This document shows, one piece after another, positions 14,499 to 64,000 of a stretch of DNA of 64,000 nucleotides. This stretch comes from Bacteroidales bacterium (GTDB lineage: Bacteria > Bacteroidota > Bacteroidia > Bacteroidales > BM520). Below the pieces are notes generated by a model. That model was not told where the DNA came from. It saw only the letters and a program-made list of their open reading frames with translations, and did no database searches. A program made the position numbers and the translations under genes. Each line of letters starts with the position of its first letter. Within the stretch, counting starts at the first letter, position 1. Location: contig JBMNMG010000005.1 in NCBI GenBank assembly GCA_050953245.1, positions 320,575-384,574 on the forward strand, written 5' to 3'.

Positions 14499-15641
14499 AT
14501 GAATATTTTAATAACTGGAGCTAAAGGTTTTATTGGAAAGAATTTAGTATCAGAGTTAAATAATATTATATCTGGAAAAACTAAAAAGTATGGTATAGAT
14601 AATAATTTAACTTTGTTTGAATACGATATTGATACAGATCCAAAATTATTAGATGAATATTGTAAAAATGCAGATTTTGTTTTCCATTTAGCAGGTGTTA
14701 ATCGCCCTAAAACAGAAGACGAATTTATGAAAGGTAATTTTGGATTAACATCAGATTTGTTAGATAAGTTACAAAAATACAATAACAAATGTCCAATAAT
14801 GTTATCATCATCTATTCAAGCAGCATTAGATAACCCTTATGGAGTATCTAAAAAAGCAGGTGAAGATTTATTATTTGAATATTCCAAAAACACCGGAGCA
14901 AAAGTTTATGTTTTTCGTTTTCCTAATGTATTTGGTAAGTGGTGCAGACCTAATTACAATAGTGCTGTAGCAACATTTTGTAATAATATTGCTCACGATT
15001 TACCAATTAAAGTTAATGATCCTAACGTAGATATGACATTAGTTTATATAGATGATGTTGTTAATGAATTAATATTTGCATTACAAGATAAAGCTTATAA
15101 AGAAGGTGAATATTGTAAAGTTAGAGTAGAGCATAAAATTAAATTAGGTAGAATAGCAGATTTATTATATGAGTTTAAAGAAAGCCGTAAAAACTTATTA
15201 GTTCCCGATATGAGTGAACCAATAGTTAAAAAGCTATATTCTACATATTTAAGTTATTTGCCTGAAGATCAATTTAACTATCCTTTAAAGATGAATGTAG
15301 ATAATAGAGGATCATTTACAGAGTTTTTAAAATCAAACGATAGAGGTCAAGTATCTGTAAACATATCTAAACCAGGAATTGTAAAAGGGAATCATTGGCA
15401 TCATACTAAAAACGAAAAGTTTATTGTAGTTAGTGGAAAAGGAGTTATTAGATTCCGCAAAATAGATGAAGATAAAGTTTATGAATATTTTGTTTCCGGA
15501 GATAAATTAGAAGTAGTAGATATACCTGTTGGATATACACATAATATAGAAAACTTAGGTGATAGCGATATGGTAACTATAATGTGGGTTAATGAGATTT
15601 TTGATCCTGAAAACCCAGATACTTATTTTTTAGAAGTGTAA
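14499..15641 (+). CDS. fnlB: UDP-2-acetamido-2,6-dideoxy-L-talose 4-reductase (FnlB/CapF-type, SDR plus C-terminal cupin)
   Basis: N-terminal SDR (ITGAKGFIGKNL) and C-terminal cupin (RGSFTEF...KGNHWHHTK). Follows fnlA. Confidence 0.85.
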   Translation: MNILITGAKGFIGKNLVSELNNIISGKTKKYGIDNNLTLFEYDIDTDPKLLDEYCKNADFVFHLAGVNRPKTEDEFMKGNFGLTSDLLDKLQKYNNKCPIMLSSSIQAALDNPYGVSKKAGEDLLFEYSKNTGAKVYVFRFPNVFGKWCRPNYNSAVATFCNNIAHDLPIKVNDPNVDMTLVYIDDVVNELIFALQDKAYKEGEYCKVRVEHKIKLGRIADLLYEFKESRKNLLVPDMSEPIVKKLYSTYLSYLPEDQFNYPLKMNVDNRGSFTEFLKSNDRGQVSVNISKPGIVKGNHWHHTKNEKFIVVSGKGVIRFRKIDEDKVYEYFVSGDKLEVVDIPVGYTHNIENLGDSDMVTIMWVNEIFDPENPDTYFLEV

Positions 15642-26202: not shown

Positions 26203-28410
26203 ATGGAAAAAGATGCACTTGTCAATAAAAATGAAAAAATACCTGTTGAATTTATCGTCAATGATATCATCTACAAGGTTCTTTCGTTTGAGGAAAGAAC
26301 TGTGGAAGTAGGCGAGCAAACCGAAGGTTCCGATACCGTTATCATACCGAGTCCGGTGACGTATAATGGCATTATATTCAATGTGATAGGTGTTGGTGAT
26401 AGGGCATTCTATAGTTATTATAATGTTACTTCTGTGATATTACCCAATAGCATCAAGTATATTGGTAATAATGCTAATTCATTTAACCTAATACGTATTC
26501 ATTTGACTTTGCCTTCATCCCTTGAGAGAGTATTAGAAAGTGCTTATGTTTTTAATAAATTAGATGATTTAAATCTTCCGTCAAGTTTAAAGGAGATTGG
26601 CCCAAATGCATTTGCATTCACAAAAGTTGGGACTGAAAAAGCATATATCCCGGCAAGTGTAGTTACTATAGAAGGAAATCCTTTTTTGGGCTCCGATCTT
26701 AAAGAGATTATTGTAGATTCCGGTAACAGTTGTGTTAAATCTGAAGATGGTGTTCTTTTTAGTAAGGATGGACGAAAATTAATTGCTTATCCTGATTTAA
26801 AGCCTGAGAAAACTTACACCATTCCTGATGGTGTAACTACGATCGGAAGATTATCTTTTGGATACAATTATATTTTGATGAAACTGATCATTCCTGCAAC
26901 AGTCAATAAATTTGAAAACAAAGCTTTATGGTCGTGTTCAAGTATAAAAACCATTGTTATGCAAAGTACCTTACCTCCGGAAGTTGGAGAAGAGTCATTG
27001 CATGATATAGAAAGCAATTGTTTTATTTTAGTCCCCAAGAGGTGTATTAATAGATATAAAAATGCTGAGGGATGGAAAAAATTTGTTAATATAGTTGATG
27101 AGCTACCTACTGAATTTAAAATCAATGGCATCAACTATAATGTTCTTTCGTTTGAGGAAAAAACTGTAGAAGTGGGTCAAAATCCCCAAGCTTCAGGTGT
27201 TTATACTATTCCGAGTCAGGTAACCTACAATGAGTTCACATACAATGTGGTAGGTGTTGGAGATCACGCATTCGGTTGTAACGAAAGAGTTACTTCCGTA
27301 AAGTTGCTCAAAGGCATCAAGTCTATCGGCATATGTGCATTTCAAACACTTAATAATCATTTACTATTGCCTCCATCTCTTGAAAAGATAGGCAGAAGTG
27401 CTTTTACATATAATCAAATTGTTGATTTAAGACTCCCGCAAAATTTACAGGAGATTGATTCACTTGCATTTGCATACACAACAATAAAAACACAAAAGGT
27501 AAATATACCTTCAAGTGTAACTTCAATAAAAGGTAACCCTTTTTATGGCTCTAGTATTAAAGAGATTAAAGTATCTTCCGGCAGCCGTCATTTTAAATCT
27601 CAAGATGGTGTTCTTTTTATCAGAAATGGGCAGAAATTGTTAGTTTATCCGACATTAAAGCCCGACAAAACTTACGCCATTCCTGCTAATGTCACTACGA
27701 TAGGAGAATCATCCTTTGCATACAATATTAATTTGACCAATCTTATCTTTCCTACTACAATTAAGAATTTGGAAAACAATGTTTTCTGGTCGTGTCCAAA
27801 TCTAAAAACACTTGTTGTTAAAAGCACTACACCTCCGGAAGTTGAAGATATGTCGTTGGATGGTGTGGAAAGCAATTGTATTCTTATCGTACCCAAGGGT
27901 TGTGTTGATAAGTATAAAAACGCAGATGGATGGAAAAAATTTAAGACTATCAGGAGTTTCCCAATCCACGGATTTCTTCCGAAAGAAGTATATTCAGATG
28001 GTATCCCTGACAATAAAGGTCCGCTTGAATTTTCATTCCCTCAGAAAGAAAGAAAACTCTGGGCATTATCATTTGATTTTAAAGTCAATGAAAAACTTAA
28101 TCAATGGATCTTTATGCTATCAAAAAATAGTAGAATATTTGGAATTCTCCTTGAGCAAGATGGAAATATTTATATCACAACGAATGATCAAAAAAATAAA
28201 TATTCACTCAGTAGTTCATATTCATTAAACATATGGCATTCGGTTTATTTGTCTTTTGATAACGGTCTATTAACTTTTCAATTAAATGATAATCCTCCTG
28301 AACAAATTCACATAAAGATGAATTTGAAAGATGAAGATAATTCTTGGAGTTGTTCCAATTATTCTGATGGAGTAAAGTTCAAAGGATATTTGAGAAATAT
28401 CATATATTAA
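26203..28410 (+). CDS. BspA-type leucine-rich-repeat protein with internal ~290-aa duplication and C-terminal LamG/ConA-like domain
   Basis: Repeated IP..V..IG..AF LRR_5-type units. Residues ~13-302 and ~303-590 are paralogous. The C-terminal ~140 aa looks like a jelly-roll fold. No signal peptide seen. Confidence 0.78.
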   Translation: MEKDALVNKNEKIPVEFIVNDIIYKVLSFEERTVEVGEQTEGSDTVIIPSPVTYNGIIFNVIGVGDRAFYSYYNVTSVILPNSIKYIGNNANSFNLIRIHLTLPSSLERVLESAYVFNKLDDLNLPSSLKEIGPNAFAFTKVGTEKAYIPASVVTIEGNPFLGSDLKEIIVDSGNSCVKSEDGVLFSKDGRKLIAYPDLKPEKTYTIPDGVTTIGRLSFGYNYILMKLIIPATVNKFENKALWSCSSIKTIVMQSTLPPEVGEESLHDIESNCFILVPKRCINRYKNAEGWKKFVNIVDELPTEFKINGINYNVLSFEEKTVEVGQNPQASGVYTIPSQVTYNEFTYNVVGVGDHAFGCNERVTSVKLLKGIKSIGICAFQTLNNHLLLPPSLEKIGRSAFTYNQIVDLRLPQNLQEIDSLAFAYTTIKTQKVNIPSSVTSIKGNPFYGSSIKEIKVSSGSRHFKSQDGVLFIRNGQKLLVYPTLKPDKTYAIPANVTTIGESSFAYNINLTNLIFPTTIKNLENNVFWSCPNLKTLVVKSTTPPEVEDMSLDGVESNCILIVPKGCVDKYKNADGWKKFKTIRSFPIHGFLPKEVYSDGIPDNKGPLEFSFPQKERKLWALSFDFKVNEKLNQWIFMLSKNSRIFGILLEQDGNIYITTNDQKNKYSLSSSYSLNIWHSVYLSFDNGLLTFQLNDNPPEQIHIKMNLKDEDNSWSCSNYSDGVKFKGYLRNIIY

Positions 28411-30180: not shown

Positions 30181-30335
30181 AAAAAAAATAGTAATCGTTG
30201 AAAAAAGATAACCACATTGGTATCACAATCCAAGGATCTAATTCCAACAATTACTATTTTATGCGAAGGTAAAAAATCTTTTTTAAATAAACAAGAAAAA
30301 TTTTATTTATCTTCCTAAATATCAAGTATTAAAAA
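30181..30335 (+). repeat. structured repeat, copy 2 (154-nt tandem unit; hairpin 30185-30260)
   Basis: Begins 24 nt after the ATPase stop. Near-identical to copy 3. Confidence 0.88.
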
Positions 30336-30490
30336 CAAAAAATAGTAATCGTTGAAAAAAGACAACCACATTGGCCACACAATCCAAGGATCTAATTCCA
30401 ACAATTACTATTTTATGCAAAGGTAAAAAATCTTTTTTAAATAAACAAGAAAACTTTATAATAATTTCCTATATATCAAGTATTACAACT
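30336..30490 (+). repeat. structured repeat, copy 3 (tandem with copy 2; hairpin 30339-30414)
   Basis: Same arms and loop as copy 2, offset by 154 nt. The tail ...TTCCTA(A/T)ATATCAAGTATTA(A/C)AAC is also duplicated. Confidence 0.88.
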
Positions 30491-39797: not shown

Positions 39798-39983
39798 GGG
39801 ATGGCTTCTCCAAATTCTAGGGATGGCTTCCCGAAAATTTAGGGATGGCTTCCCTAAATCTCATTAAAAGTTACTTGTAATTTGATGATAATTAGATTGT
39901 TGTGTAAAAAATAATATGAGATGGCTTCTCTAAAATTTGGAGATGGCTTCCCGAAAATCTGGAGATGGCTTCCCTCTTTGTTA
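39798..39983 (+). repeat. left module: 3 + 3 units of a 22-bp-phased repeat (core GRGATGGCTTCYC)
   Basis: Unit starts at 39798, 39820, 39842 and at 39918, 39940, 39962. A 54-nt conserved AT-rich spacer lies between the clusters. Confidence 0.92.
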
Positions 39984-41051: not shown

Positions 41052-41281
41052 GGAGATGGCTTCTCCAAATTCTAGGGATGGCTTCCCGAAAATTTAGAGA
41101 TGGCTTCCCGAAACCTCAACAAATATAGTTTGTAATTAGGTGATAATTAGATTGTTGTGTGAAAAATAAAATGGGATGGCTTCTCCAAAATCTAGAGATG
41201 GCTTCCCTGAAACTCAGAGATGGCTTCCCTGAAACTCAGAGATGGCTTCCCTGAAACTCAGAGATGGCTTCCCCAAAATGT
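41052..41281 (+). repeat. right module: 3 + 5 units of the 22-bp-phased repeat
   Basis: Unit starts at 41052, 41074, 41096 and at 41172, 41194, 41216, 41238, 41260. The units at 41194, 41216 and 41238 are identical. Confidence 0.92.
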
Positions 41282-55448: not shown

Positions 55449-55497
55449 ACATATATGTTATTTATATATGTTTTTAACATAAATTGTAAAAAAATAT

Positions 55498-56240: not shown

Positions 56241-58703
56241 ATGAACATTAAAAAGAAGTTTTTATCGGAATTAGTTCCAATATTAGTTGCATTAGTTTGT
56301 TTTGTAGCAATAGTATTGATTTATTGTTCACCTGTTTTTAGCGGAAAAGTTATTAATCAACCGGATATGCTCAACTTCAAGGGCATGAGTAAAGAAGTCT
56401 TTGATTTTAGAGAACAAACAGGTGAAGAACCTTATTGGACAAACTCTATGTTTTCCGGTATGCCGGCCTACCAAATCTCTGCTTTAGCACCATCAGCTCA
56501 TTTATTAGATTTTCCATCTAATTTATTTCATTTGTTTCTAAGTGGTGTTATAGCAAGTTTATTAGGTTACTTTATTGGATTTTATATCTTGATGAGGTCT
56601 TTTGGTATAAATAAATGGCTATCTATTATAGGATCTATTGCAATTTCATTTTCATCATACTTCTTTATTATATTGGCAGCCGGTCATAACTCTAAAGCAT
56701 TAACAATAGGGTATTTTGCACCGGTAATAGGAGGCTTCTTTTTAATTTTCAGACAGAAGAAATATTTATGGGGAATTCCCTTAGTTTTAATATGCACAGC
56801 TATAGGAGCGCTACTTCATCCTCAAATGACGTATTATTTTTGTATGATGTTGGGAGTGTTTTTTCTTGTAGAATTAGTTGAGCATATAAGAACTAAAAAA
56901 ATTAAAGATTTTTTATTTGCAACTTTAATATTTGCCGGGTCATTTGCTATAGGAATTGGAACAGGATACGGTAAATATAAAGTGAATCAAGAATACTTAA
57001 CCGAGACCATGAGGGGTGGGCACTCTGAAATAGTTAAAGAAGACGAATTAAAAGATAATACGTCGGGGCTAAGTTTAGAGTATGCTACTCAATGGAGTTA
57101 CGGGAAGTTAGAAACTTTTACATTGATGATTCCAAACTTTAAAGGAGGATCGTCTCATTATTCCGTTTCAACAAAATCAGATATCTATAAAGAGTTAATT
57201 AATAAAGGAATGCCTGTAACATCTGCAGAACAGTTTTGCAGTTCGTTGCCAATGTATTGGGGAACACAGCCTTTTACATCGGGTCCTGTGTACGTAGGTG
57301 CCATTATTTGCTTTTTATTTGTATTGGGATTATTTATAGTGAAAGGTCCTTATAAGTGGGCATTACTGATATCTACATTGTTTTCGATATTATTAGCATG
57401 GGGCAGTAATTTTATGGGTTTTACTAAGCTTTTCTTTAATTATTTCCCAATGTATGATAAGTTTAGAGCTGTTTCATCAATTTTAGTAGTGGCTGAAGTA
57501 GCAATTCCGTTATTAGGCTTTTTAGCTCTTAAAACAATAATGGAAAACAAGATAGAAAAAGAAGTCCTTCAAAAAAAGATATTGATATCAGGAGGTATAA
57601 CAGCAGGTATCTGTCTATTTTTTGCAATATTTGGTAAAGCCTTATTCTCATTCACTTCACCGCAAGATGCTATGATATTTGCACAGCTACCGGATTGGCT
57701 AACAGCTTCAATAGTTTCGGAACGTGCATCTATGTTAGTTACTGATGCATTTAGATCAGCACTATTTATTATTTTAGGAGTAGCAGTAATGTGGCTATAT
57801 GTTAAAGGCAAAATAAAATTTGTTTATTTTACTATCTTACTTGGAGCTTTAATATTAGTAGATATGTGGGGTGTAAATAAACGATTCTTTAACAATGATA
57901 ATTTTGTAACTCAAAAAGAATACGATAGTTACTTTGCAAAACTTCCATACGAAGAACAAATCTTAGCAGACCCGGATTTGTATTTTAGAGTTTTCAATTT
58001 AACCACCAGTGCATTTAATGACTCTCGTACTTCATATTACTTAAACTCGATAGGCGGGTATCACGGAGCAAAATTACGCAGATATCAAGATTTAATAGAT
58101 CAACATTTATCTAAAGGCAATATGAATGTCTTAAATATGCTAAATACTAAATATTTTATTACCAAGGGAAATAATAATATCCCGGTTCATCAATTGAATA
58201 TTAGTGCATTAGGTAATAGTTGGTTTATAGATTCGTTATTAGTAGTTAATACCCCCAAAGAAGAGTTGGATGCGTTAAATACAATAAATCCATCTAATAC
58301 TGCAGTAACAGATAAGGTGTTTAAAGATTTTACAACAAACTTTAATGCTACTACCGATTCAACGGCATCAATTATACTGACTAGTTATGCACCAAATAAA
58401 TTAGAATATGTTTCTAATAGTAATTTAGATAAAACTGCCGTATTTTCGGATATTTATTATCCGTACGGATGGCAAGCATATATAGATGATAATCCTGTAG
58501 ATCACTTTAGAGTAAATTATGTTTTAAGGGCATTAAATATCCCTGCGGGAAATCATAAAATAGTCTTTAAATTTCATCCTACTACATTGTTTAAAGCAGA
58601 TAAAGTATCTTATGTGTTAATTATCTTAATGTATGTTATTACTGTGGGTTGTATTGCTATAGGAATTACTAAATCAGTAAATAAGAACAAAAAAACTGTA
58701 TGA
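56241..58703 (+). CDS. YfhO-family polytopic membrane protein (putative glycosyltransferase)
   Basis: 820 aa, many N-terminal TM segments, large C-terminal extracytoplasmic part and a terminal TM, as in the Bacteroidota YfhO family. Confidence 0.75.
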   Translation: MNIKKKFLSELVPILVALVCFVAIVLIYCSPVFSGKVINQPDMLNFKGMSKEVFDFREQTGEEPYWTNSMFSGMPAYQISALAPSAHLLDFPSNLFHLFLSGVIASLLGYFIGFYILMRSFGINKWLSIIGSIAISFSSYFFIILAAGHNSKALTIGYFAPVIGGFFLIFRQKKYLWGIPLVLICTAIGALLHPQMTYYFCMMLGVFFLVELVEHIRTKKIKDFLFATLIFAGSFAIGIGTGYGKYKVNQEYLTETMRGGHSEIVKEDELKDNTSGLSLEYATQWSYGKLETFTLMIPNFKGGSSHYSVSTKSDIYKELINKGMPVTSAEQFCSSLPMYWGTQPFTSGPVYVGAIICFLFVLGLFIVKGPYKWALLISTLFSILLAWGSNFMGFTKLFFNYFPMYDKFRAVSSILVVAEVAIPLLGFLALKTIMENKIEKEVLQKKILISGGITAGICLFFAIFGKALFSFTSPQDAMIFAQLPDWLTASIVSERASMLVTDAFRSALFIILGVAVMWLYVKGKIKFVYFTILLGALILVDMWGVNKRFFNNDNFVTQKEYDSYFAKLPYEEQILADPDLYFRVFNLTTSAFNDSRTSYYLNSIGGYHGAKLRRYQDLIDQHLSKGNMNVLNMLNTKYFITKGNNNIPVHQLNISALGNSWFIDSLLVVNTPKEELDALNTINPSNTAVTDKVFKDFTTNFNATTDSTASIILTSYAPNKLEYVSNSNLDKTAVFSDIYYPYGWQAYIDDNPVDHFRVNYVLRALNIPAGNHKIVFKFHPTTLFKADKVSYVLIILMYVITVGCIAIGITKSVNKNKKTV

Positions 58704-58891
58704 AAAACAAGTTTGCATTAATAACGGTATTCCTTTTTATGATGGGTCCATGCATGCAAAAAAACCTATTCCGTATAACCCTATAGAGTTGGAGTAAGTC
58801 ATGAGTACTTATCTTACTGCTGAATAAATTCAATTTGCATTTTTTTAATAAAAAAGTAGCAAAAACACTTGACAAGTGAAAAAATAATTTT

Positions 58892-58899
58892 TACCTTTG
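58892..58899 (+). promoter_or_regulatory. orphan -7 box TACCTTTG with no annotated gene downstream
   Basis: TAnnTTTG match. The next long ORF starts 455 nt downstream, and a 13-bp inverted repeat begins 16 nt after the box. Confidence 0.3.
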
Positions 58900-59353
58900 T
58901 ATGGTCAAATCTTTTTGAAAGGACATGGTCATGAAGTACAATCTGTCGATAGAAAAACTGCCAATATCGTTCATTGAAAAAGTGATACAAAGGGGAGTTT
59001 CGTTTGTCCTGAATAAAAAAACATGTCCTTTCAACTTTCTAAATTGCTTATTATTAATAGTTTAATAGCAACCTCTTTGTATGAGGGCAAGACGTGTACT
59101 TTGCCTTGTACTGGAAATGGATGCTATATCCGTAAGCAGTCTTTCATTTGGATTTTGGACAAGAACAGGTTTACTTAGTTTGTGGCCTCGCAATAAACGT
59201 GTGTCTGCCGTTTGTGAGACCAAGTTAAACATGAGGCGACGGGGAAACACCGCCACAGCAAGTCGTTTTGACTGAAGGCTTGAGAAAAGACATAAAATAG
59301 TCATAAAATACAAAAAATTCAAATGTAATAAAAACTAATTAAAATATAATAAA

Positions 59354-60073
59354 ATGAAAAAATACATAACTATAATGATAGCCATTTTGGGTATTGCAGT
59401 GTTTATAGTGACATTCATTGCCTGCACTAAGGAAAAAGAACAAATTAATATTCAATCTTTAAATGAGGTGGATGGCAGAAAGCCCATCGCAACATTCGAT
59501 AATGCAACAGGAGTGATAACTTATTCTTTCGATTTATCTGAGGTTCAACAAAAAATTAGCAGTGACCTTGCATTAAGAAGCGACCAAGACAGATTTATTA
59601 TTGAATCCATCATTATTGAGGATAGCGTTCCCTCTGATATACGGGTCCTTCCTGAAATTCGAATCACAGTATTAGACACTGAAGAGGAAGTATCATATAC
59701 CATGTGGTACATGCGTAAATTTGCCAACAAGGAGGTGAACAAAGACGGAACCAATTACTACGTAGACTCAGAGGTACGTACAGGTATATATGAATTTGCC
59801 TATCATATTGGTGACACCTACTACAAAGCTAATGTGAACGGCAATGAGATCACTACGACAGAGATTGACTCCACTTTGTGTAAGGATATGATAAGATGGT
59901 TCTTTGTATGTTTACAAAAAGGTTGCGAAGTCTCTTGCACAAAAGGAGGCTCATTTTGGCATGGGTACTGTAATCCATGTCCCACACCACCGGGACAATG
60001 CAGTCAAGAAATTGCGCCATGGGTTACTCCTACGATTTCTTTTTTGGGTGCTCTAATAATTGCCCTGCTTTAA
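59354..60073 (+). CDS. putative lipoprotein with Cys-rich C-terminal region and terminal hydrophobic tail
   Basis: Lipobox-like ...VTFIAC. Seven Cys lie in the last ~60 aa, ending in ISFLGALIIALL. Confidence 0.55.
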   Translation: MKKYITIMIAILGIAVFIVTFIACTKEKEQINIQSLNEVDGRKPIATFDNATGVITYSFDLSEVQQKISSDLALRSDQDRFIIESIIIEDSVPSDIRVLPEIRITVLDTEEEVSYTMWYMRKFANKEVNKDGTNYYVDSEVRTGIYEFAYHIGDTYYKANVNGNEITTTEIDSTLCKDMIRWFFVCLQKGCEVSCTKGGSFWHGYCNPCPTPPGQCSQEIAPWVTPTISFLGALIIALL

Positions 60074-60177
60074 CTTATCTTTAGTCACAACAGTATGTCA
60101 AAATAGGAAATGTTTTTCCAAAAGGACTTCAAATGGAAGACAACTTTTGACATACTGTAGTTTTTATACAATTTATC

Positions 60178-61479
60178 ATGAAAAAAGAAAAATCACAAAA
60201 CAGGTTATTGCTGTTTGTAATGGTTATGATTACAATATCATTACCTATCAAATCGACTTTTGCGCAAAACGCTATTGATTTATATAAGTCCATGTCAAAA
60301 GAATTTGCAACAGACCATCCATTTGTAAGTTTTGTCGTTGACGTCGAGCAACGGAAAGATGATTCCACCCTGTGGACCTCCCAAAAACATGTCTTCCTGG
60401 ATTATGATGAGAAAAATCCAACGATCTATGTGGATTATTTAAGTGAAGGCGGAAGGATTAGGGAATCTCAACTATTAGACACAAAAAAATACATTTGCAT
60501 TGACCATGACAGTTATGAAATCACCAGATACGACAACAAGAAAATGCCCTGGGACGACTATCATGACTACGGACTATTTGAATTTATTCCTCACGCATTC
60601 TACTATTTGAGTTATTACCTTTATCCCATGAAGGGAAAAATTCGAGGAGGATTGATGATGTACACGATTTCCAACATCCAAGACCAAGAATCTATAACGG
60701 TCAATGACAAATTATACACGAAGTTTCACGGTATTTCCAACACCTTAATTACTACAAATGGAAAAACAGGCAAGCGAATGTTGGCCAAGAATAAAGCGGC
60801 TTTTTTTGTCAATCAAGAAACGAAAGTGTTGGACAGTGTTTATGTTATTCAAACTCCCTCAGATTACGAGAAGTGGGAGACCTTTGTGAGCATTCGGGAT
60901 GTTGTGTTTTCTGACCCCCAAAAGTACATTGATGATGTTTTCAACCTTGAGAAGGCGGAATATAAGAATTACAGCCGCCACGACAGCAAAAATCCGCCAC
61001 TGAGCAGAGCTTATTCCAGAAATAAAGGCGTGACTGAAGCCTTGCTCAACTATCCTTTGCAGAAACTGGACAGCGGGCTAACCACTCTTGCTGACAACAA
61101 GGGCTGGGTCTTGCTTAACTTTTGGAGTGTAAACTGTCCCCCTTGTTTGGCTCATCTGAAAGAGTTGGGGCACGAAAAAGATTCACTGGGGACATATATC
61201 TTGGAAAGTAAAGGCATTAAAATATTGGCTATCAATCATCGATCGGACAATGTTGATCTTATTCGCTCCATTGCAGAAAAAACTAACACGTCTGAAATTG
61301 TCTATTATGCGAATGGCATAGGCGATGTCATCAGTATTCGATTTCTCAATTATTATTATCTCATCTCTCCTGACAGACAAATTGTTTATGAAACATGGGA
61401 TTTAGGCGACTATTCCGAACTCCTGAAAGCAAAAGCAGATTATGAAAAACGACACCCGGAATTGTCAAGTATTCCATAA
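60178..61479 (+). CDS. secreted protein with C-terminal TlpA/thioredoxin-like domain
   Basis: Signal peptide (…KSTFAQ) and LLNFWSVNCPPCLAHLKEL (CxxC in a Trx fold). The N-terminal ~290 aa are unassigned. Confidence 0.62.
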   Translation: MKKEKSQNRLLLFVMVMITISLPIKSTFAQNAIDLYKSMSKEFATDHPFVSFVVDVEQRKDDSTLWTSQKHVFLDYDEKNPTIYVDYLSEGGRIRESQLLDTKKYICIDHDSYEITRYDNKKMPWDDYHDYGLFEFIPHAFYYLSYYLYPMKGKIRGGLMMYTISNIQDQESITVNDKLYTKFHGISNTLITTNGKTGKRMLAKNKAAFFVNQETKVLDSVYVIQTPSDYEKWETFVSIRDVVFSDPQKYIDDVFNLEKAEYKNYSRHDSKNPPLSRAYSRNKGVTEALLNYPLQKLDSGLTTLADNKGWVLLNFWSVNCPPCLAHLKELGHEKDSLGTYILESKGIKILAINHRSDNVDLIRSIAEKTNTSEIVYYANGIGDVISIRFLNYYYLISPDRQIVYETWDLGDYSELLKAKADYEKRHPELSSIP

Positions 61480-61653
61480 CAAAAGAGGATTGCGGGAAAG
61501 AAATGGTAAGAAAAGTAGAGGAACAGGAAATTATGAAAACCCTTATAACCCCATCGAATTGGAATAGGCAACCTAAGATGTGAAGAAAAACAACAAAAAG
61601 GTAAAACATCTAAATTTGAATTGTAATAAACAATTTGAAACTGAACAAGCTGA

Positions 61654-61971
61654 AGCAAAGCAGACAGCCGGCCTATTGTGAGCCTCATCTATAACGCTAA
61701 TTTGAACGTGATGCTGCCTTTCGGCTTGTCCGTTACGCCTGCAGTGGAGTACTATCATACCCGTACCGAAGGACGCAAAGACAATTTTGTGCTTTTGGAT
61801 TGCAGCCTAGGCTACACGTTCCGTAATGTCAAATTCAGCCTTGACGTGAACAATATTCTTGGTACGGATAGTTTTATATATTCCTATTATTCCGGGATTT
61901 ATGGGTATTATTCTGCGTATTCCATTCTCCCGCGCAGTGTGATGTTAACCGCGAGATTCAAGGTGATGTAA
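61654..61971 (+). pseudogene. C-terminal fragment of an outer-membrane beta-barrel (TonB-dependent-receptor-like) gene
   Basis: Only ~100 codons are open. Alternating beta-strand pattern (FSLDVNNILGTD..., PRSVMLTARFKV) resembles a barrel C-terminus. No N-terminal part is present. Confidence 0.45.
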
Positions 61972-62020
61972 CTTATAGATGAAAAATACTTTCACGTATA
62001 ATATTATAGAATAATAATAA

Positions 62021-62060
62021 AAAAAGAGCCATCTAAGTTTAGTTAAATGGCTCTTTTATT
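62021..62060. terminator. bidirectional terminator hairpin
   Basis: AAAAAGAGCCAT ... ATGGCTCTTTTATT, flanked by an A-run and a T-run. Lies between the convergent barrel fragment and nifJ. Confidence 0.75.
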
Positions 62061-62112
62061 TATATAACTATATTTATTTTATTATATAGCTAAATAATTG
62101 ATTTCAAAGTTA

Positions 62113-64000
62113 TTATTTTTCTTCTGCTAACTTTTTATATTGATTATATCTCCATTGAGCATTTTCTTGTGTTGCTTTAAATAACACTTTTGCTTCTTCA
62201 GGGAATGTTTTTGTTAGAGAATTAAATCTAACTTCGTTCATTAAGAAGTCTTGGAATTTATCCCAATCAGGTTCTTTACTATCTAAAGTAAATGGGTTTT
62301 TATCTGTTCCTTCTAAAGCTGGGTTATAACGCCATAAGTGCCAGTAACCGCATTCTACAGCTTTCTTTTCTTCTAATTGTGTTTTACCCATACCCGATTT
62401 AATACCATGATTAATACAAGGTGAGTAACAAATTACTAATGAAGGACCTGGATATTCTTCAGCTTCTTTAATAGCTTTGAAATATTGAGCATGATTTGCC
62501 CCCATTGCTACTTGAGCTACATAAACGTAACCATAAGTACGAGCAATCATTCCTAAGTCTTTTTTACGAACTTTTTTACCGGAAGTTGCAAATTTAGCAA
62601 CTGCACCTGCAGGAGTAGCTTTTGAAGATTGACCACCTGTATTTGAATAAACTTCTGTGTCTAATACTAAAATGTTAACATCTTCACCGGAAGCAATAAC
62701 GTGATCTAAACCACCAAAACCAATATCATAAGCCCAACCGTCACCACCGATTATCCATTGAGATTTTCTTGCTAAATGATGTTTTAGACTTAAAATTTGT
62801 TTGCAGTATTCACAATTACATTTTTCAGCTAATTCAATTATTTGATCTCCAATTTTTTTGCTTTCTAATGTTTTTTCTTTATTTTCTATCCATTGTTTAA
62901 ATAGATCTTTTAATTCAGCACTAACTTTATCACTCTTTAAACCTTCTTCCATGATTTCTTGTAGAGTGTTTCTTAGTTTTTGAGTTGCTATATACATTCC
63001 TAAACCAAATTCTGCATTATCTTCGAATAATGAGTTACCCCATGATGGGCCATATCCGGAACGATAATTTCTACAATATGGAGTAGCAGGAGCTGAACCA
63101 CCATAAATAGAAGAACAACCTGTAGCATTAGCGATCATCATTTGTTCACCATATAATTGAGTTATACACTTGATGTAAGGTGTTTCGCCACAACCAGCAC
63201 AAGCACCTGAGAATTCAAATAACGGTTGAGCAAATTGGCTGTTTTTAACGTTAGCTGCTTTATCAATTAAATGATCTTTATATGTAACTTTCTTTTGTGA
63301 ATATGTCCAGTGGGCTTCTTCTCCCATTTGAGTTTCTAATGGTTTCATTACTAAAGCTTTTTCCTTAGCAGGACAAACATCAGCACAATTACCGCATCCG
63401 GCACAATCTAACGGAGATACTTGAATTCTAAAATGCATTCCATTTAATTCCTTTGGAACTTTTACTTCTATAGTAGTCATTCCTTCAGGAGCATTTTCCT
63501 TTTCTTTATCATCCATAACAACCGGTCTGATAGCAGCATGAGGACATACTAATGAACATTGGTTACATTGGATACAGTTGTTTGGATTCCATTCAGGAAC
63601 AAATACTGCAATACCACGTTTTTCGTATTCTGTAGTACCGGCAGGGAAAGTGCCATCTTCATAACCGTTAAATGCACTAACAGGTAAATCGTTTCCTTTT
63701 TGAGCAAGTATAGGTCTTACTATGTTTCTAATAAACTCAGGCTCATCTTCGTTACCTTTATCTTTTTTAACTTCAATATTTGCCCATTCTTTTGGAATTT
63801 CAACTTTAGTAACGTCAGAACCGCGATCTACTGCTGCATAGTTCATTTTTACAATATTATCACCTTTTCTTCCATACGATTTTACAATAAATTCTTTCAT
63901 TTGTTCTACAGCTAAATCGTAAGGAATTACGTTAGAAATTTTAAAGAAGGCAGATTGTAAAATAGTATTGGTTCTGTTACCTAATCCAATTTCTTGAGCT
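62113..64000 (-). CDS. nifJ: pyruvate:ferredoxin (flavodoxin) oxidoreductase, C-terminal ~630 aa (5' part beyond the window)
   Basis: CIQCNQCSLVCPH and CAGCGNCADVCP ferredoxin domain, then the TPP domain GGDGWAYDIGFGGLDH. The frame stays open upstream of the tracked Met to position 64000. Confidence 0.93.
   Translation of the reverse strand, partial: AQEIGLGNRTNTILQSAFFKISNVIPYDLAVEQMKEFIVKSYGRKGDNIVKMNYAAVDRGSDVTKVEIPKEWANIEVKKDKGNEDEPEFIRNIVRPILAQKGNDLPVSAFNGYEDGTFPAGTTEYEKRGIAVFVPEWNPNNCIQCNQCSLVCPHAAIRPVVMDDKEKENAPEGMTTIEVKVPKELNGMHFRIQVSPLDCAGCGNCADVCPAKEKALVMKPLETQMGEEAHWTYSQKKVTYKDHLIDKAANVKNSQFAQPLFEFSGACAGCGETPYIKCITQLYGEQMMIANATGCSSIYGGSAPATPYCRNYRSGYGPSWGNSLFEDNAEFGLGMYIATQKLRNTLQEIMEEGLKSDKVSAELKDLFKQWIENKEKTLESKKIGDQIIELAEKCNCEYCKQILSLKHHLARKSQWIIGGDGWAYDIGFGGLDHVIASGEDVNILVLDTEVYSNTGGQSSKATPAGAVAKFATSGKKVRKKDLGMIARTYGYVYVAQVAMGANHAQYFKAIKEAEEYPGPSLVICYSPCINHGIKSGMGKTQLEEKKAVECGYWHLWRYNPALEGTDKNPFTLDSKEPDWDKFQDFLMNEVRFNSLTKTFPEEAKVLFKATQENAQWRYNQYKKLAEEK

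Follow-up and report, generated by a model that had tools for sequence, protein, structure and literature searches.

Two PYNPIELE tails in a Bacteroidales contig: probable 3'-terminal remnants of decayed GLPGLI-family genes

A 64,000-nt stretch of Bacteroidales bacterium DNA (GenBank assembly GCA_050953245.1, contig JBMNMG010000005.1, positions 320,575–384,574; hereafter the window, in whose coordinates features are given) contains two short open reading frames (ORFs), copy A and copy B, ending in the same octapeptide, PYNPIELE, immediately followed by a stop codon. Tail A occupies positions 58771–58797 and tail B, positions 61541–61567, both on the plus strand, as are the other features with coordinates in this paragraph. 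Tail A starts 68 nt 3' of an intact YfhO-family gene (56241–58703, matching PF09586), and tail B, 62 nt 3' of an intact gene for a 433-aa TlpA/AhpC-like (thioredoxin-like) protein. The latter, together with a gene for a 239-aa protein, forms a two-gene cassette (59354–61479) between the tails. Tail A is directly followed by a gene-junction remnant (58798–58829), and downstream of tail B is a fragment of an outer-membrane barrel gene (61663–61971) beginning 96 nt after copy B; further downstream is a convergent pyruvate:ferredoxin oxidoreductase gene.

The letters of both tails were rechecked: tail A reads CCG TAT AAC CCT ATA GAG TTG GAG TAA, and tail B, CCT TAT AAC CCC ATC GAA TTG GAA TAG. As the first-pass annotation of the window had it, they differ at 6 of 27 nt, each difference being synonymous or lying in the stop codon. 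Taken alone, the evidence against chance that the window itself provides is thin and makes a weak case. In Markov-simulated 64-kb windows read in six frames, 0.7–0.9 pairs of identical octapeptides per window are observed, and pairs with a stop after both copies, 0.017 per window; as plain DNA, the tails constitute a 26-nt repeat with 81% identity, not outstanding among the other repeats of the region. For this reason we turned to evidence from outside the window.

At least 159 matches on at least 120 metagenome contigs were found for the degenerate coding pattern CCNTAYAAYCCNATHGARYTNGARTRR, matched exactly by both tails, so that further PYNPIELE-stop copies, whose existence the annotation had left to be checked, are abundant. 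The information content of the pattern is approximately 39 bits, and just a handful of matches are estimated to arise by chance. These loci are denoted L109–L228, and counts given for them, including fractions of the 120 loci, were taken among the matches listed. Nearly all matches terminate ORFs of 280–310 codons, the parent proteins being about 290 aa long; PYNPIELE-ending proteins score 141–167 bits with TIGR01200 (GLPGLI; cutoff 50 bits) and also match PF09697. To our knowledge, the GLPGLI family (TIGR01200; Pfam PF09697, Porph_ging) is a paralogous family of Bacteroidota without known function; in the searchable literature it is mentioned in passing, and the tail motif, in no paper.

Such genes are often arrayed in tandem, with up to six placed head to tail. 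The exact PYNPIELE end is present in 146 of 196 GLPGLI ORFs, the remainder being mostly one-residue variants, and a few ORFs have a second tail type, xWLWLE[VMA]E. The approximately 35 residues preceding the octapeptide are hypervariable, and the TIGR01200 model stops about 35–45 residues short of the tail. The octapeptide is encoded by 98 distinct 24-mers, and paralogous tails from the same locus differ at 0–7 of 27 nt (3.6 on average), so the six synonymous differences between tails A and B are normal, equal to the spread among paralogues of one locus. The sequence 3' of the GLPGLI stop is diverse, with the next ATG mostly 0–30 nt further on, and a conserved DNA element in this position, considered as a candidate, was rejected because of this diversity. 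When a match falls in a short ORF, it belongs to a degraded GLPGLI gene in all 20 assessable cases.

Proteins of a large family end in PYNPIELE with a stop, and both window tails, being identical to the octapeptide plus stop of a large subfamily, are therefore real homologues of that end. By sequence comparison the tails are not members of a small-protein family, as all assessable PYNPIELE-stop cases are full-length or degraded genes for proteins of about 290 aa. Hence the proposal of a small-protein family under purifying selection at its C-terminus stands in two parts, since the tails are homologous and the C-terminus is selected, but the unit of selection is the C-terminal octapeptide of ~290-aa GLPGLI proteins.

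How much of the parent genes is left was assessed with a family profile built from 119 PYNPIELE-ending GLPGLI members and run on the whole 64-kb window. It matches just the two tails, with its last 26–42 positions (positions 260–285 of this hidden Markov model for tail A). Both copies end with the C-terminal (P)YNPIELE-COOH, and neither yields a full-length match, which would span about 230 positions and include the GLPGLI motif. Residues 5' of the octapeptide in the tail frame score like shuffled sequences in both copies; apparently longer upstream homology, e.g., 44% identity over 36 aa with L215, is driven by the octapeptide and was discarded. Because they have neither the body of about 270 residues nor the GLPGLI motif, the window copies are relics and not GLPGLI members.

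Homology of tail A does extend downstream. Following a 3-nt spacer, positions 58801–58827 encode MSTYLTAE and a stop, corresponding to the first eight codons of a radical-SAM maturase. The segment 58771–58829 is 76% identical to the junction of a GLPGLI gene end and a maturase start in L142 (positions 886–944), including the 14-nt exact run ACTTATCTTACTGC, and the homology fades beyond about 58830. The L142 gene, opening with MDTYLTAGQ, scores 351 bits with TIGR04148 (cutoff 300 bits) and is followed by a gene for a TIGR04150 pseudo-radical-SAM (pseudo-rSAM) protein; the maturase of L182 starts with MKKYLSAEN.

The third remnant, at 61663–61971, comprises the last approximately 103 codons of a gene for an ~886-aa protein with CarboxypepD_reg and outer-membrane barrel domains. 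It is 48% identical to proteins from L205, L162 and L121 (E = 3e-27, tblastx) and covers residues 788–885 of 886 only. Its closest proteins have 83–86% aa identity and carry PF14905. Compared to the intact relative L231, it has 13, 7 and 38 differences in the first, second and third codon positions, respectively, and its frame is still open. This third-position bias points to a recent truncation of the barrel gene; together with the open frame and the still-perfect tails, it fits young remnants.

These pieces are found assembled elsewhere. GLPGLI arrays often adjoin a large outer-membrane barrel protein gene, and a subset also adjoins a TIGR04149/04148/04150 cluster; barrel-protein homologues are present in 71 of the 120 PYNPIELE loci, and a TIGR04148-type maturase directly follows a tail in 17 of the 120. 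In L182 and L205 (937–14460 and 911–9680 in the respective contigs) the barrel protein gene is followed by a TIGR04149 Cys-rich precursor with a GG leader, GLPGLI genes with interleaved precursors, and the maturase, and then by genes for a pseudo-rSAM protein, an ABC exporter with a C39 domain, and an HlyD-like protein; we found no paper on this arrangement. In several metagenome loci the maturase is reduced to its first approximately 105–125 codons behind a tail. The window resembles L142, L182 and L205 in having the maturase's first eight codons right after tail A, and differs from such clusters by the absence of the maturase body, the pseudo-rSAM gene, the precursor and the exporter: tblastn with the respective sequences yielded no further match in the window. 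Judging from its gene content, the window holds no functional TIGR04148-type cluster. A 33-codon ORF after tail B was considered as a decayed GG-leader precursor on the basis of 7 of 24 residues matched by eye, but finds neither TIGR04149 nor tblastn support.

Thus the tails are very probably 3'-terminal scraps of two paralogous GLPGLI (TIGR01200) genes produced by ordinary decay. The interval between the YfhO gene and the pyruvate:ferredoxin oxidoreductase gene would once have held a locus of the barrel/GLPGLI/TIGR04149-04148-04150 type. Deletions and the arrival of the higher-GC cassette of the 239-aa and 433-aa genes would then have removed the gene bodies and spared three leftovers, namely tail A with the maturase's eight codons, tail B, and approximately 103 terminal codons of the barrel gene. 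Fixation of the six synonymous differences would date from the time of intact parents, when the octapeptide was under strong purifying selection; being inherited from intact parents, the synonymous-only pattern carries no information on the present function. As for copy A, one option in the annotation was a frameshifted pseudogene. The pseudogene part is retained, and the apparent –1 shift is best read as a rearrangement scar, possibly left by an out-of-frame internal deletion through which the last approximately 12 codons of the gene came to follow its signal-peptide end. The order and nature of these events are our inference, as is the lack of expression of the remnants.

Several observations weigh against this scenario. 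No close relative (80–95% identity) with an intact locus at this place was found, so the ancestral arrangement is inferred. All eight residues and the stop have been kept in both tails, though the bodies are lost, which demands recent decay or retention, and none of the 20 assessable degraded metagenome copies is as bodiless as the window tails. The order of tail B followed by the barrel fragment differs from the canonical order of barrel gene followed by GLPGLI genes, and in L229 and L231, which hold the intact genes most closely related to the barrel fragment, an ECF sigma gene comes next in place of GLPGLI genes. Finally, the spacing of the tails from the upstream genes is similar (68 and 62 nt), and the two have the same relative frame, which we leave as a coincidence.

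The tails lie in the +1 frame of their upstream genes, and acquisition of a tail by YfhO or the 433-aa protein through a +1 shift was also considered; it was rejected, and the frame position taken as coincidental, since no non-GLPGLI protein in our data ends in the motif. The closest relatives of the barrel fragment were considered as candidates for the ancestral intact locus, but their contigs, 1.7–2.7 kb long, are too short to provide the GLPGLI context. The same goal was pursued via YfhO: among the 80 nearest GTDB loci from 185,579 species genomes (best identity 62% at the aa level), we found no GLPGLI gene and no PYNPIELE-like peptide within two mismatches. Since these loci lack synteny, the motif and GLPGLI genes, they are uninformative.

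Comparable gene remnants arise by deletion or replacement in other bacterial accessory loci. These likewise keep short in-frame fragments of neighbor genes at rearrangement junctions, with a divergence pattern inherited from the intact genes; there is no essential difference here, and the unusual feature is the presence of two remnants with the same perfect octapeptide. The finding is real but ordinary, and the window itself is of little importance. It provides a caution for screens of short ORFs and frameshifts, in which a conserved peptide should be checked first against the ends of known larger families: pairs of short ORFs with synonymous differences only, along with a textbook slippery heptamer, can arise from remnants of paralogous genes.

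The tails bracket a higher-GC patch, as was noted initially: they are direct repeats 2770 nt apart on its two sides, and the GC content of the cassette is 0.35–0.44, compared to about 0.30 in the flanks. With this geometry, the tails could be seen as DNA elements (attachment or recombination sites, or crossover points between paralogues) that mediated capture of the cassette, the more so as GLPGLI loci are prone to rearrangement, with truncated maturase fragments and degraded copies, and as a conspecific contig, L088, joins position 61976 to 56420. We regard this explanation as improbable. The repeat identity is a mere 78–81%, and the differences are confined to third codon positions; the family conserves the coding of the octapeptide and no DNA motif, with 98 different 24-mers in use. 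The boundaries of cassette homology, 59339 and about 61470, do not match the tails at 58771 and 61541, no integrase, transposase or recombinase ORF is present between 54.7 and 64 kb, and the cassette, found at 11 loci of other genomes, is never flanked by such tails.

More precisely, the cassette homology to relatives starts at 59339 and ends at approximately 61455–61472. Its two genes have homologues (48–60% identity) that are found paired elsewhere, in contexts devoid of the PYNPIELE motif, and loci of the relatives of the 433-aa gene (at most 60% identity) encode an ~245-aa protein, the 433-aa protein, a DUF1573 protein, a helix-turn-helix (HTH) protein and a kinase, so that the cassette is outside the GLPGLI system. 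The possibility that tail B travels with the 433-aa gene was rejected, because cassette homologues never adjoin the motif. The 239-aa protein (gene at 59354–60073) has a Cys-rich C-terminus, CKDMIRWFFVCLQKGCEVSCTKGGSFWHGYCNPCPTPPGQC. In relatives it invariably occurs together with the 433-aa protein, and for both proteins a firm assignment to a family is lacking.

More speculatively, the bodiless tails could have been kept as a self-sufficient octapeptide module, with "tail-only" peptides still being made, which we consider quite improbable. The module might be a recognition peptide for the barrel protein, the exporter or a protease binding C-termini; if so, the peptides would be the 41-mer of copy B and, for copy A, a signal peptide fused to the tail via slippage at its A7 run.

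The explanation closest to the first-pass annotation is that both copies are genuine small genes, with the A7 run enabling expression of copy A, be it by –1 slippage of the ribosome, slippage during transcription or phase variation. Some features of copy A do fit it. The 5' ORF of 28 codons, MKNKFALITVFLFMMGPCMQKNLFRITL (58700–58786, plus strand), starts with an ATG at 58700 that overlaps the YfhO stop as ATGA, as described initially, and resembles a signal peptide. In its frame positions 58757–58765 read CAA AAA AAC, and the heptamer A_AAA_AAC (58759–58765, plus strand) within the A7 run is an X_XXY_YYZ site in the zero frame of this ATG, correctly placed so that a –1 shift enters the tail frame. 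The claim that the tail frame is reachable only by such a shift is not borne out: this frame, open from 58681 onward, contains an ATG of its own at 58750 (MHAKKPIPYNPIELE), hence no shift is formally needed. The 5' ORF has no NCBIfam match, and when compared to positions 1–15 of the family profile it beats 99% of shuffles, yet with a score of 0.4–0.5 bits, as any signal peptide would. Possibly this ORF represents the signal-peptide end of the gene that tail A once terminated, fused to the tail out of frame through an internal deletion.

Perfect preservation of both tails and the intact ORF of copy B are also in line with small genes. Copy B indeed is a 41-codon ORF (61442–61567, plus strand) that overlaps the 3' end of the 433-aa thioredoxin-like gene by 38 nt, and it consists of the out-of-frame 3' end of this gene, a 62-nt spacer and tail B. 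Its start codon and first 12 codons are therefore the out-of-frame end of another, conserved gene. The start ATGAAAAAC, shared by the two copies and initially taken for homology, corresponds in copy B to the Tyr-Glu-Lys codons (tat/tac gaa aaa) of the thioredoxin-like gene, and homologues of the 433-aa gene often lack an ATG in this position (tAC Gaa instead of tAT Gaa). As the Tyr-Glu-Lys codons are conserved while the ATG is often missing, the start of copy B is a by-product of the host gene. The shared GTATTC lies in different frames relative to tails A and B and is coincidental as well. Copy B has no signal peptide.

Frameshifting or phase variation at the A7 run fares no better. The segment 58757–58860 folds with –12.6 kcal/mol, compared to a shuffle mean of –12.1 (z = –0.19), and its centroid is unstructured, so no stimulatory structure follows the heptamer. 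Moreover, no orthologous short or two-frame ORF was found either in 1.5 Mb of loci retrieved for YfhO relatives or around the relatives of the 433-aa gene, leaving programmed frameshifting unsupported. Known programmed –1 sites (e.g., in dnaX and in transposases of insertion sequence (IS) elements) share with copy A an X_XXY_YYZ motif in the right phase between overlapping frames, but here the stimulatory structure and a conserved two-frame gene in relatives are missing, and the second of the two frames is the leftover end of a different gene. In the 17 conspecific metagenome contigs, retrieved with the YfhO and 433-aa proteins, gene callers never call the mini-ORFs. All 15 independent conspecific assemblies that cover copy A have the same A7 run and align without gaps, which excludes an assembly error and, at the consensus level, phase variation, both raised as options by the annotation; the region of copy B is also identical across 15 assemblies. 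Given that, in addition, all assessable occurrences of the motif trace to ~290-aa proteins, small genes are a very unlikely explanation for both copies.

A coincidental match of the tails in an AT-rich 64-kb window is effectively refuted, for although about one identical octapeptide pair per window arises in simulations and the DNA repeat is unremarkable, stop-terminated pairs are far rarer, each tail separately matches the invariant C-terminus of a large family, the homology of tail A extends 32 nt beyond its stop into the maturase start, and a remnant of the barrel gene associated with this family lies 96 nt beyond copy B.

With the tails read as remnants of decayed GLPGLI genes, the invariant octapeptide of the parent family is a modestly interesting side observation. 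In a large GLPGLI subfamily an invariant octapeptide follows a hypervariable stretch, precursor genes are interleaved, and a barrel protein is associated. The invariant octapeptide and the precursor interleaving suggest a testable role of GLPGLI proteins in immunity or as partners. In a more speculative version, they would be immunity or escort proteins paired one-to-one with TIGR04149 radical-SAM-modified peptides and would act through the tail. This family-level proposal is independent of what the window remnants do.

Around both copies, the 17 conspecific contigs align to the window without gaps and show essentially no differences from it; some variation is seen farther away. L081 matches the window exactly as far as the end of the oxidoreductase gene, within which it diverges by 10%: compared to window positions 62113–63882, it has 182 differences (35, 15 and 132 in the first, second and third codon positions), suggestive of a chimeric assembly or of recombination with a related species. 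The junction in L088 (positions 2240–2250) amounts to a circular permutation of 56420–61976, with AGGTGA microhomology within a 21-nt similar stretch, and could reflect a tandem duplication, a circular form or an assembly chimera. In L092 (2582–5074) one strain has an insertion at about window position 55457, between the gene for a CoA-transferase subunit and a 178-aa gene, with an extra 830-aa gene encoding N6-adenine methylase and Methylase_S domains.

A related organism has a barrel fragment that is likewise 5'-truncated (L230, positions 1190–1513; 83% nt identity to window positions 61679–61964). Its breakpoint is about 15 nt off the one in the window, and its neighbor is an AAA_14/DUF4143-type ATPase gene on the other strand, so that either an independent truncation at nearly the same spot or an assembly chimera is conceivable. 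Between the barrel fragment of the window and the convergent oxidoreductase gene is a strong terminator-like hairpin, a 15-bp inverted repeat with a T-run (62006–62073).

No gene is recognizable in the approximately 0.5 kb that separate tail A from the 239-aa gene (58830–59340), and no Rfam or NCBIfam match and no homology to the retrieved loci were found in this segment; the Rfam scan covered 55–64 kb with E-values up to 1 and yielded no match throughout. Here gene callers alternate between a 64-aa plus-strand ORF (59081–59275) and an 80-aa minus-strand ORF, and a GC-rich hairpin is located at 59235–59256.

Other octapeptides shared within the window stem from true DNA repeats. These include an approximately 154-nt tandem repeat near 30.2 kb (about 30184–30430), an element with an internal period of 44 nt repeated at 39.8 and 41.1 kb (39800–39950 and 41055–41260), paralogous genes 2205 nt apart (35431/37636 and 36444/38652), repeats 858–864 nt apart at 26–28 kb (26278–27917), and one further repeat at 15619/16878.

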